Source of the DNA: Eledone cirrhosa
Taxonomy: Eukaryota
Assembly (NCBI GenBank): GCA_964016885.1
Contig: OZ024751.1
Span: 34,472,001 to 34,536,000 of the forward strand
Reading direction: 5' to 3'
DNA length: 64,000 nucleotides
Part shown: positions 11,525 to 59,978 of the stretch, in pieces
How the letters are laid out: each line of letters begins with the position of its first letter
Position numbering within the stretch: position 1 is the first letter of the stretch
The notes under the pieces: generated by a model
The model's input: the letters and a program-made list of their open reading frames with translations, nothing else
Databases searched by the model: none
What the model was told of the DNA's origin: nothing
Program-made: the position numbers and the translations under genes

Positions 11525-11658
11525 AAGTAGTAACACAACAGTTAGTTGACCATACGGAGAACAATTGTTTCACCTTGTGGATCTTCAGTCCGAGCTGAAG
11601 ATCCACAAGGTTAAACAATTGTTCTCGGTATGGTGAACTAACTGTTGTGTTGCTACTT
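11525..11658. repeat. Palindrome, 64-bp arms, 6-nt loop, abutting (TA)n
   Basis: Arms are reverse complements with 4 mismatches around cttcag-tccgag-ctgaag. Confidence 0.95.
11590..11628 (+). ncRNA. Minimal type I hammerhead motif with GAAA mutated to TAAA; a mirror copy on the minus strand (about 11555-11592) keeps GAAAC
   Basis: ccgag CTGAAGA tcc-acaa-ggt TAAAC aatt GTT ctcgg: 5-bp stem I, palindromic ACAATTGT stem III. Confidence 0.65.
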
Positions 11659-11814
11659 CTACCAAACTCGTCCCAGGATCGGAGTGCTCTACTACTAAGG
11701 AACCCTCCAGTGTTCTACCTTATATCTAAACTATAATAAATTAAGCAGCACGGGACTGCGTACTGTTTATAATATGTTTATCCCATTAGTAATATAAGTT
11801 GGATTACTTTGAAT

Positions 11815-12012
11815 AAATAATTGTTTCTACTTTTGGCACAAGGCCAGTAATTATCCCAGTGTATTACTGGTACTTTATTTTATCGACCCTCTAAGGATGA
11901 AAGGCAAAGTTAACCTCGGCGGGATTTGAACTCAGATCATAAAGGGTGGTAACTCTATGCTGCAAATCATGGCGTCCGACCCTCTACCGATACTGCCAAT
12001 CCCCCGCCCTTT
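11815..12012 (-). mobile_element. Same SINE family
   Basis: Nearly identical to 5449-5641. Confidence 0.85.
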
Positions 12013-12370
12013 GATTAAATAATGAATGAATATTACATTATTTATCTACTAAATTTCGTGGCTGTTGATTAAATATATTTTGTTTATTTAAAGATTCACT
12101 TCTTTAAAGTTTCTGAAATGTCAACACTTCCGTTTGGCGATTGCTTAAATAAACATACTAATTTTCTGTCACTAATTTTCTCCTAATGCAGTTTATATAT
12201 AATATCGTCTTTTTTAATGTATCATGGATTACGTTACTGATTACATAAGACAGTGTAACGCAGTCTTCGCTTAATTTCTATGTATTATATATTGTCAATT
12301 ATGATTTTATTTGATGTATCATATCTACATGTATATATACCTGCGTATAATAACAATATACACACTACAC

Positions 12371-12413
12371 ATGCTAGCAGAAAACCACCCGAGGGTGGTT
12401 TTTCTGCTAGTAT
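12371..12413. repeat. Short palindrome, about 20-bp arms
   Basis: atgctagcagaaaaccaccc-ga-gggtggtttttctgctagtat. Confidence 0.9.
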
Positions 12414-12503
12414 ATATAATGTCTGCTGCCATCACAACAGGATAGTTATACATGGCCAACAGCATAGCCCAATAACTGCATAACTGCACCTATGATTGCG
12501 TAA

Positions 12504-57326: not shown

Positions 57327-57393
57327 TTTTATTATGCGCATTTCAAAAACAAACATCATCAAACAATAATATTTGTGTTTTCATCAGATAAAA
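57327..57393 (-). ncRNA. Type I hammerhead ribozyme in the PLE terminal repeat
   Basis: ttttat-CTGATGA-[stem II hairpin]-GAAAT-gcgc-ATA-ataaaa: 6-bp stem I, intact core, palindromic stem III (ATGCGCAT), AUA cleavage triplet. Confidence 0.85.
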
Positions 57394-58640
57394 CAGGAGA
57401 ACATGATATGAAGGCTAAAAAAACACTTGTTGATAGTGCAGTTTTAAATCAACATATGAAAAGTGGTTTTAGATTGATGTGTGATATTGGGAAAAATATT
57501 TTATTTAGAGAGGGGGGGAGAGAAAAGGATGAAAAGGGAAGGAGATGAGAGGGAGAGATGGGTGATAGAGAGAAAGAGATAGTTTTTATAACAGAGAGGA
57601 GATATATTTTATATAGAGGGGTTGAAAACCGTTGGAAGATACTGTATAAATTAAAAATTTTGAAAATTAACGAAGGGAGGATATGTGCGAGGAAAAAATA
57701 TATTATATTTAGGGAGGGGTGGGGGTGGAAAGGATGAAAAAAATGGGAGGAGATGAGAGTGAAGGTGGAAAGGGAGAGATGGGTGATAGAGAGAAAGAGA
57801 TAGTTTTTATAACTGAGAAAAAGATATAATGTTTTAATATAGAGAGGTTGGGAACCGTTGGAAGATAATGTATAAATTAAAGGAATTTGAAAATTAACGA
57901 AGGGAAATTATGTATGGAGATAGAGAGAAAAAAATAACGAAGGGAGATTATGTATGGAGATAGAGAGAAAAAAAATAATAATTGTGGGTGAATATTCAAA
58001 AGGAGAAATGTAGGAATTTTAAAATTAGCAAAGAGAAAAAGTTTATGTATAGGATTTGAGAAAAATAATGTGAAGTTAAAGTTTTTATATTGAATTCATA
58101 TGTATTAATAATGAGTTCGTTGATGGGGAGAAAAAAATAATAATAAATTAAGGATGAAATTGAGATTAAAAAGATTTATGATAGAGAGAAAAAATAATAA
58201 TGATTGCGGATGAATACTCAAAATGTCAAAAACAAATGTTATTGTTTTACGAGGAGATATAATGAGGGTGATGAGTAAACGGGTATTATAGAGTGTATAA
58301 TGCCCTTTAAAGTAAGGTAGATGGGTATATTTTAAAGAATATATGAGTATATATTAAAAAAAATATATAATAATAAATTAAGGATGAAATTGAGATTAAA
58401 AAGATTTATGATAGAGGGAAAAAAAAAAAAAAAAAAAATAATAATAATGATTGCGGATGAATATTCAAAATGTCAAAAACAAATGTTATTGTTTTACGAG
58501 AAGATAGGATGAGGTAAATGAGTAAACGAGTACTATAGAGTGTATAATGCCCTTTAAAGTAAGGTAGATGGGTATATTTTAAAGAGGTGTATGTATATGT
58601 GCCTTTGAGAAAAGATTCTAAATTGATAAAGAATTGAATA

Positions 58641-59450
58641 TTAACTGTATACTTTGTGAAAAGTTCTATGGAATTTATGCAGGCAGATGGAAAACAAATC
58701 CGAGCGTCTATTTATTATGGATTCTAGGTTAGAGATAATGGTAAATTTTTCATTTAGGCAGAGATTACAGATTTTAGATAGAGAACTGTTCAAGTACGAG
58801 GATGCAGAAGAAATCTTTTTCCAAAAGATGTTATATTTAATGTTTTTGTCTTTTAAGGACCATATGAGTTCTGAGAGAGCAGTGTTATTTCTTTTAAGTT
58901 TGTATTTGAAAGATGAATGATGATTATAGAGACGAGCTTTAAAAGAGGTGGAAGTGGAGCCAAAATAGGTGAAGGAGTTGGTGCTAGTTATAATTTTACA
59001 TTCATAAATTAAGTTTTTATCGAGGCAATGGTTGTTGAGAGGACATTTATTTTTAATGCGGCAGTTGCAATTAGAGAGATTATTAATGAGTGATCTAGTG
59101 TTATCTATAGAAGGAATTGGATTGGAGAAGTTGTTTGCGATAGGAATAATAGGAATAATAGTTTCTTGATTTAGAGTTGGATTATGAACATTTAGCGAAG
59201 TTGTGTTTGACGTTGCATTTGGGTTTACAGAAGTTAGCCTAGGGTTTACAATGACGTCAGGAGTACTATTATTGTTATTATGAGATTCAATATTGGAAGG
59301 AAGAGATTTAGTATTTAATATTTTGTTGTTGTGTTTAGAAATGATGTTGGAAATATTGGAGGATGTAGAATACGAAAATTTAATGGTGTGTTTGTTAAAT
59401 ATTTTACTATAGATATGTGAGGGAGGGAAGCATTTATTTAAGGCACTAAA
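58641..59450 (-). CDS. C-terminal part of a Penelope-like element ORF (post-RT linker, CxC zinc knuckle, GIY-YIG endonuclease), 5'-truncated
   Basis: Manual translation gives a stop-free 810-nt frame: FSALNKCFPPSHIYSKIFNKHTIKFSYS...CNCRIKNKCPLNNHCLDKNLIYECKI...TYFGSTSTSFKARLYNHHSSFK...TALSELIWSLK...ICNLCLNEK...INRRSDLFSICLHK...VYS*. LIY/YFG is the GIY-YIG pair, followed by the catalytic R and Cys/His motifs. It has no start codon because it is cut by (TA)n at 59451. Confidence 0.9.
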   Translation of the reverse strand, partial: FSALNKCFPPSHIYSKIFNKHTIKFSYSTSSNISNIISKHNNKILNTKSLPSNIESHNNNNSTPDVIVNPRLTSVNPNATSNTTSLNVHNPTLNQETIIPIIPIANNFSNPIPSIDNTRSLINNLSNCNCRIKNKCPLNNHCLDKNLIYECKIITSTNSFTYFGSTSTSFKARLYNHHSSFKYKLKRNNTALSELIWSLKDKNIKYNIFWKKISSASSYLNSSLSKICNLCLNEKFTIISNLESIINRRSDLFSICLHKFHRTFHKVYS

Positions 59451-59694
59451 ATATATATATATATATATATATATATATATATATATATATATATATATAT
59501 ATATATATATATATATATATATATATATACAAAATTAAGATAAATCAAAAATCAAAAATTAAGATAATCAAAAATTAAGATAAATCAAATGAATTTAATC
59601 TAAATCAAAATTATGGGTGTCATGCCAGAAAGACATGCGCCATATCACCCGCAAAATAAGGTCTAAGATTCTAACGAGTAGGTCCGAGCATTTT

Positions 59695-59978
59695 ATAACT
59701 AGAAATTGATTAACATATAAATAAACATGAGTAATCACAGGAGATAATTTTTACAAGTGTGTAACCACACATAGCTAGGTAGGTAACTAAATAAAGTTGA
59801 CCAGAACTTCAAAAATAAATACCTTATAATATGATTAATCATATTATAAGGTATCTATTTTTGAAGTTCTGGTCAACTTTATTTAGTTACCTACCTAGCT
59901 ATGTATGGTTACACACTTGTAAAAATTATCTCCTGTGATTATTCATGTTTATTTATATGTTAATCAATTTCTAGTTAT
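59695..59978. repeat. Palindrome, 142-bp arms, no spacer, abutting (TA)n
   Basis: Centre atgatt|aatcat at 59836/59837, about 3 mismatches. Confidence 0.95.

Follow-up and report, generated by a model that had tools for sequence, protein, structure and literature searches.

Palindromes in (TA)n tracts of an Eledone cirrhosa contig: likely, for the most part, Penelope-like 3' ends joined to an inverted truncated copy

Introduction

An inverted, 5'-truncated copy beside the pseudo-long terminal repeat (pLTR), with a tail of 30-40 bp at one end, has been described for Penelope-like elements (PLEs) in PMC8557442 (Craig et al. 2021). According to the same source, Hydra and Naiad elements, Octopus families included, target (TA)n, and Penelope-13_HM carries a 5'-truncated inverted copy. 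Head-to-head repeats with a palindrome at the junction were reported in PMC3846280 (Arkhipova et al. 2013), where self-priming was proposed. In work with a purified PLE, the enzyme cut both target strands and extended each of them, two RNA start sites bounding the genomic tail were used, and hammerhead cleavage was dispensable (PMC11167929, Frangieh et al. 2024). The present analysis concerns eight palindromes, P1 to P8, in a stretch of 64,000 nt of the Eledone cirrhosa genome (GenBank assembly GCA_964016885.1, contig OZ024751.1, positions 34,472,001 to 34,536,000, forward strand), which is referred to below as the window.

Most of these palindromes are likely to be PLE 3' ends (pLTRs) of several families, which contain no open reading frame (ORF) and carry an inverted truncated copy, inserted in (TA)n. 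This interpretation draws on the hammerhead motifs, on a tail motif that recurs between units, on the presence of a Hydra-type ORF in the window and on arms that vary in concert. A PLE origin, with the palindrome formed at each insertion, is considered probable. The layout itself is already published (PMC3846280, PMC8557442), and the finding is for that reason mainly one of annotation, in that PLE families not previously recorded are densely represented in a genome rich in microsatellites. Some value is added because the literature still treats the origin of PLE inverted repeats as an open question (PMC8557442, PMC11167929), and short ORF-less insertions in which both junctions are visible make it testable from genome sequence alone. 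What the window likely adds, judged from its sequence, is the origin of the palindrome at each insertion and a fixed register for the short-arm ends, which lie at TA-like sites.

Results

Palindromes and their (TA)n flanks

The window has a GC content of 33% and is rich in microsatellites; 15,725 nt were masked for self-BLAST. Palindromes were located by the masked self-BLAST, an inverted-repeat finder and arm alignments, and these bore out a sequence-only reading of the window that had listed eight palindromes with the lengths of their arms. All eight are present, with arms of about 19-285 bp, and the arms of the seven long ones are 92-100% identical. The ends of P6 and P7 are soft because the underlying alignments extend into TA. 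An ungapped scan of the window recovered seven of the eight, P2 being missed, together with a weak ninth palindrome, P9 (41006-41058); the same scan gave no match in any of five shuffled windows. The units are as follows.

P1, 11526..11720 (+): palindrome 11526-11657 (arm 63, 6-nt loop, 93.7% identity); short arm 11526-11588, long arm 11595-11657, tail to ~11720
P2, 12373..12554 (+): palindrome 12373-12411 (39 bp, arm ~19, one indel), TATATATAA, then perfect-core hammerhead 12504-12554
P3, 13788..13981 (-): palindrome 13871-13981 (arm 55, 96.4%); long arm 13871-13925, short arm 13927-13981, 83-nt tail, TTGAGTACT at 13835-13843
P4, 24603..24803 (+): palindrome 24603-24722 (arm 60, 91.7%); short arm 24603-24662, long arm 24663-24722, 81-nt tail, TTGAGTACT at 24750-24758
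P5, 28096..28296 (+): palindrome 28096-28216 (arm 60, 100%); short arm 28096-28155, long arm 28157-28216, 80-nt tail, TTGAGTACT at 28243-28251
P6, 46915..47588 (-): palindrome 47020-47588 (arm ~285; 95.5% across the outer 244); arms ~47020-47310 and 47311-47588, 105-nt tail
P7, 48968..49539 (-): palindrome 49104-49539 (arm 203, 30-nt loop, 96.6%); long arm 49104-49306, short arm 49337-49539, 136-nt tail, TTGAGTACT at 49044-49052
P8, 59530..59978 (-): palindrome 59695-59978 (arm 142, 97.9%); long arm 59695-59836, short arm 59837-59978, no spacer, 165-nt tail
P9 (beyond the eight), 40879..41058 (-): 19-bp arms, 127-nt tail, one-mismatch tail motif 40921-40930
42576..42696 (-): diverged relative of P3, P4 and P5 (67-71%), tail motif present, inverted arm absent

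P3, P4 and P5 are mutually 88-94% identical and constitute one family, and the eight palindromes therefore represent six families. The earlier description of the palindromes as unrelated sequences does not hold for these three. A TA run of at least 8 nt was found within 1 nt of one end in 8/8 palindromes, a run of at least 10 nt in 6/8 (chance ~0.015 each) and a run of at least 12 nt in 5/8, the random-placement expectation across the thresholds being 0.009-0.022. When P3, P4 and P5 were counted once, four of the six families adjoined a 10-nt run (p ~1e-6). P4 and P5 are flanked by (TA)n on both sides, and P8 by long (TA)n on both sides.

In P3 to P8 the tail is the stretch by which the long arm continues until the following TA run; the long arm of P1 extends for ~63 nt and closes on a bare TATAT. 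Seven of the eight units have such a one-sided tail, of 63-165 nt, compared with 30-40 bp in the literature. The arrangement in which one arm ends in TA and the other is longer was confirmed for most palindromes, P2 being the exception. P2 probably represents a pLTR whose 5' end is palindromic, and P8 was assigned to the units by its architecture alone. By eye, a stem-loop in the P8 tail at 59603-59645 (-) resembles a Penelope_HM-type hammerhead that has decayed and lacks stem III.

Variation between arms and placement of their ends

The six arms of P3, P4 and P5 were compared over 55 columns, 14 of which are variable. Seven of the variable columns are common to both arms of one copy, none is arm-specific and seven are singletons. 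Moreover, the centres of the three palindromes are all different. The shared variants, the lack of arm-specific columns and the differing centres suggest that the palindrome was likely rebuilt at each insertion.

The short arms of P3, P4 and P5 end in an identical register. The junctions were read by eye, with P2 left out and P9 included, and in seven of eight (P1, P3-P7 and P9) at least 3 of the 4 nt of the long arm just beyond the short-arm end match TA; P8 fails. Counted by family, five of six families have short arms that end at TA-like sites (p ~6e-4). Furthermore, the short arm ends between the hammerhead cut site and the tail motif in all four families that could be placed (p ~0.01, post hoc). 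A fixed spacing between the short-arm end and the tail motif was considered and rejected, the distance ranging over ~20-75 nt. The window contains no inverted pair with a spacer of 31-3000 nt, the masked centre of P6 apart, and the inner ends are therefore coupled.

Hammerhead and tail motifs

Hammerhead ribozyme motifs, which are predicted to be self-cleaving, were sought with a type I descriptor, with 200 shuffles as a control. Six perfect-core matches were obtained, whereas the shuffles gave 0.135 on average and never more than 2. They lie in the P2 extension, in both arms of P7, in a separate element at 49595-49651 and in the two copies of a repeat at 33.4 and 57.3 kb, so that three of the six are inside palindromic units. 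The hammerheads of P7, P1 and P6 are listed below.

49169-49226 (-) and 49417-49474 (+): P7 hammerheads, perfect core, one per arm
11590-11628: P1 hammerhead, decayed type I, begins at the palindrome centre
47058-47106: P6 hammerhead, decayed, two core mismatches

The P1 core, CTGAAGAT-stem-TGAAAC, is intact on the left arm (11568-11588, -) and stem I is intact on the right arm; compared by eye, the core has the same form as those in the Hydra-clade table of PMC8557442. P3-P5 retain only the 3' half of a hammerhead (GAAA, stem III, GUC). P9 was inspected for a hammerhead and none was seen. Overall, hammerhead motifs, whether whole, decayed or half, occur in or beside seven of the eight palindromes, and every one reads from the centre outward, which indicates that the arms are joined head to head.

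The tail motif TTGAGTACT has eight exact matches in the window against 0.94 expected, and is found within the tails of P3, P4, P5 and P7. A TA run lies downstream of seven of the eight at a distance of 90 nt or less (0.18 by chance). P1, P6 and P9 have variants of the motif that were matched by eye. Words resembling TTGAGTACT were also seen, again by eye, near the 3' ends of Hydra-1_Amil, Hydra-2_Amil and Hydra-1_Crog, that is, in three of the five published ends compared.

Hammerhead cores without an inverted arm were noted at 1507-1535 (+), 40266-40282 (-), 49595-49651 (-), 57071-57094 (-), where stem III is seemingly missing, and 62694-62718 (-). Lone tail motifs occur at 16259, 19084, 43156 and 44079. 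These lone cores and motifs suggest that non-palindromic PLE ends are about as many as palindromic ones.

A truncated Penelope-like element in the window

A 5'-truncated PLE with (TA)n at each end occupies 57290-59450 (-). Its two recognizable parts are the following.

58641..59450 (-): 5'-truncated PLE ORF, comprising the end of the reverse transcriptase (RT) thumb, an Asn-rich linker and a GIY-YIG endonuclease
57290..57453 (-): PLE 3' terminus (pLTR), with a perfect-core hammerhead at 57325-57395, closing in (TA)n

The ORF was identified by alignment to homologues and by published motifs. Eleven homologues are longer and 33 are of similar length. The ORF contains the CxCX5C linker, CxxC and CxH motifs by which the Hydra clade is defined (PMC8557442), and the residues C127/C129/C135, C227/C230 and C255/H257 are invariant in the alignment. 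On sequence grounds it is the ORF of a Hydra-type PLE; insertion in (TA)n and a canonical hammerhead at the 3' end, both features of that clade, were found as well. RWK and DKT, the motifs expected of the clade in the N-terminal part of the RT, are each present in seven of the nine aligned homologues, and the corresponding N-terminal part of the RT has been lost from the window ORF by the 5' truncation. The GIY-YIG label is drawn from 11% of one cluster. Pfam gave no family for the ORF or for four of its homologues, and a PDB search gave no matches.

The ORF-bearing PLE and P8 have one (TA)n run in common and are separate insertions. The palindromic units contain no PLE protein sequence by tblastn or profile, and no other significant PLE coding fragments were found in the window. 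The ORF-bearing element shows that this class of PLE is present in the region, which does not imply that it is the parent of the palindromes.

Several further features of the element were noted. The ORF has an in-frame Asn-rich insert of ~60 aa between RT thumb and endonuclease (59075-59270, -) that is absent from nine aligned homologues; such inserts are also present in Adineta Penelope ORFs (PMC3846280). The 3' untranslated region (57454-58640, -) is 1.2 kb long and AT-rich and is composed of several degenerate direct repeats. A solo copy of the PLE terminus, 98% identical, is located at 33312-33469. This solo terminus lies in (TA)n (33183-33474) and includes a perfect 114-bp tandem duplication that stops within the hammerhead, likely the product of local slippage.

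Potential transcripts and host exons

The P hairpins are predicted to be stable if transcribed. Were transcription of the units common, they might enter RNA editing or small-RNA pathways; the sequence-only reading had suggested them as ADAR or Dicer substrates, should the region be intronic. The mismatches between arms were considered as a possible signature of editing and this was rejected: among 32 differences, long-arm A corresponds to short-arm G at five and the reverse at three, and several are at CpG. No host exon was found among the 217 stop-to-stop frames scanned in the window, a scan that short exons may escape. Three of the 217 had matches, namely a low-complexity sequence, a LINE zinc finger and one weak sub-cutoff ATPase. 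A bacterial promoter scan of P2 gave nothing informative. Oppositely oriented dispersed repeats in the window are other possible sources of duplexes.

Other repeats

The element at 29300-31190 (+), which we take to be Helitron-like, contains 69-bp coding repeats with a sub-cutoff STPR match and has a 3' hairpin followed by CTAG. Another, presumably LINE-like, is represented by a 3' fragment with three C2H2 zinc fingers at 41700-42327 (+) and by a second copy at 28751-29084 (-) that is 92% identical. A tandem duplication of ~1.3 kb at 44190-46760, with 99.8-100% identity and microsatellites at its borders, is either a recent duplication or an assembly error. A minisatellite at 26525-27957 has a 20-bp unit in ~74 copies. 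A SINE-like repeat of ~190 bp occurs in eight copies in both orientations, and ARAGORN found no tRNA gene in the window.

344-524, 5449-5640, 11816-12005, 28542-28645, 45063-45232, 46357-46526, 55356-55590 (both strands): SINE-like repeat

Discussion

Weight of the evidence for a PLE origin

The sequence-only reading had proposed a PLE origin and a single integration mechanism. The hammerheads, the shared tail motif, the Hydra-type ORF and the concerted arms agree with this; P8 and P2 fit less well. A number of observations weigh against a PLE origin with a palindrome built at each insertion. P8 has no detected hammerhead or tail motif. P2 breaks the short-arm rule; the arm of P2 that adjoins TA lies on the side from which the extension continues, and its short arm stops well upstream of its hammerhead. 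The P6 hammerhead is weak when taken alone, being one of 19 matches in a relaxed class that is mostly chance, and P3-P5 have no CUGANGA at one mismatch or fewer. Rfam gave no match in the window at gathering score, and no hammerhead is present among the best 150 of 385 matches by E-value, a list composed mostly of microsatellite-like miRNA models. Four of the eight exact TTGAGTACT matches are related copies, looser patterns of the motif are not enriched (9 vs 10.3; 13 vs 9.6), and the motif is absent from the Obim and Ajap-1 Hydra 3' ends that were compared. The pLTR of the window PLE matches no palindrome, and no unit is tied by sequence to the ORF-bearing element. The test of concerted arms comprises a single family in three copies. 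Furthermore, P4 and P5 differ at 7/55 arm sites and at 1/80 tail sites (p 0.008; p 0.16 with copy-specific sites only), a contrast compatible with mutation and arm conversion subsequent to insertion.

Formation of the palindromes

Priming from both ends of a cut TA tract is tentatively preferred over snap-back of the cDNA, at a confidence that falls somewhat short of probable. The GIY-YIG endonuclease would cut both strands of the tract. One TA end would prime cDNA at the far 3' start site, producing the long arm and the tail, and the other would anneal to an internal UA-like site through 3-4 nt of pairing and from there prime a second cDNA, producing the short arm. Both cDNAs would halt near the same point toward the 5' side of the RNA, and template jumping would join them head to head with a spacer of 0-30 nt. 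Double priming of this kind would explain why TA is present at both ends, why the short end is fixed and why only one side has a tail, and would agree with PLE biochemistry. Twin priming of the L1 type was rejected by reasoning because a different segment is inverted and no duplicate is made.

The possibility was considered that a PLE cDNA primed at a TA end folds back and copies its own last stretch. The hairpin would then be opened, by a nick or by invasion, at a TA-like site located upstream of the tail motif, and the other TA end would be attached to it. Such snap-back is quite possible, although less so than double priming. For the palindromes at PLE junctions self-priming has been put forward (PMC3846280), and the tail has been suggested to arise through resolution by the endonuclease (PMC8557442). 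Spacers of 0-30 nt, with none longer, fit snap-back at least as well as they fit two primings, and copy-specific variants common to both arms come free from a single cDNA, so that snap-back is the simpler account of the tiny spacers and the shared variants. The 19-bp arm of P2 also agrees with an early stop. However, the tail boundary is an RT start site in the purified PLE (PMC11167929), and the short arms of P6, P7 and P8 pass several TA-like sites before ending, so there was no stop at the first microhomology.

A preformed palindrome in a master non-autonomous element, with arms homogenised later by gene conversion or cruciform repair and the centre trimmed as well, would explain why the short-arm ends and centres of P3, P4 and P5 are within 4-5 nt of one another and why P4 and P5 diverge more in their arms than in their tails. 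It is nevertheless improbable: none of the 14 variable columns is arm-specific, P4 retains five unrepaired mismatches in 60, and the relative at 42.6 kb has no inverted arm. DNA elements with asymmetric inverted repeats and a TA target, either MITE or Helentron-type, are a far less credible source. The TA flanks, and P8 with its lack of a PLE mark, are as expected of them, but the inverted repeats meet centrally and do not bound the element, one arm stops 63-165 nt short of the terminus, and units other than P8 have hammerhead and PLE-like tail motifs. The identical arms of P5 might be taken for a fold-back artefact of library making or assembly, an explanation that can almost be dismissed because arm mismatches of 2-8% occur in six of the seven long palindromes and because the ends, the placement of motifs and the family structure are non-random.

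Double priming could be extended to a scheme in which PLEs employ double target-primed reverse transcription at two fixed pLTR RNA sites set by a TTGAGTACT-type tail element, with template jumping to finish the second strands; so stated, it is a speculation that we regard as rather unlikely. If it were true, a very large number of ORF-less hairpin insertions would be expected in the genome (this 64 kb has 8-9), and these would be a record of the mechanism and a large source of double-stranded RNA. In the open-licence literature, no double-priming account of PLE inverted repeats, no such units in octopus and no report linking two RT start sites to inverted repeats were found.

Comparison with known systems

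The Adineta vaga Penelope elements (PMC3846280) have in common with the window units the head-to-head inverted pLTR, the junction palindrome, a tail confined to one repeat, pLTR 5' ends that are palindromic as in P2, and Asn-rich ORF inserts. They differ in being mostly ORF-bearing and low-copy and in having target-site duplications, whereas the window units are terminal fragments in microsatellites. Poseidon PAc of Anolis (PMC11167929) is comparable in its two RT start sites bounding the tail, its cutting and extension of both strands, its AT-rich target and its use of uncleaved hammerhead RNA. However, it belongs to another clade, and in the passages cited its results are not applied to inverted repeats.

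Non-LTR retrozymes (PMC7229834; bioRxiv 10.64898/2026.07.22.740005) are likewise short and non-coding, have a type I hammerhead and are presumed to be derived from or mobilised by PLEs. They form direct tandem arrays, whereas the window units are single head-to-head pairs in which the ribozyme is often broken. No retrozyme-type direct tandem array (150-400 bp, with a hammerhead in each repeat) was present among the direct repeats found by self-BLAST of the window. Naiad PLEs also target (TA)n, have inverted truncated copies and occur in Octopus, but canonical hammerheads are lacking and the Obim and Ovul 3' ends are unlike P8 by eye. A Naiad origin is still conceivable for P8.

A comparison of six short window motifs with the supplement of Craig et al. 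gave no matches of a unit to a published consensus, although line wrapping may conceal some. The Hydra-clade PLEs Penelope-13_HM, Hydra-1_Obim and Hydra-1/2_Amil share with the units the (TA)n target, a type I hammerhead near the 3' end, a 5'-truncated inverted copy at the 5' end and, near some 3' ends, a similar word. In contrast, the units described here are ORF-less and have a one-sided tail of 63-165 nt instead of 30-40. By the form of the hammerhead and by the tail motif, as compared by eye, the palindromic units appear to resemble the Hydra clade.

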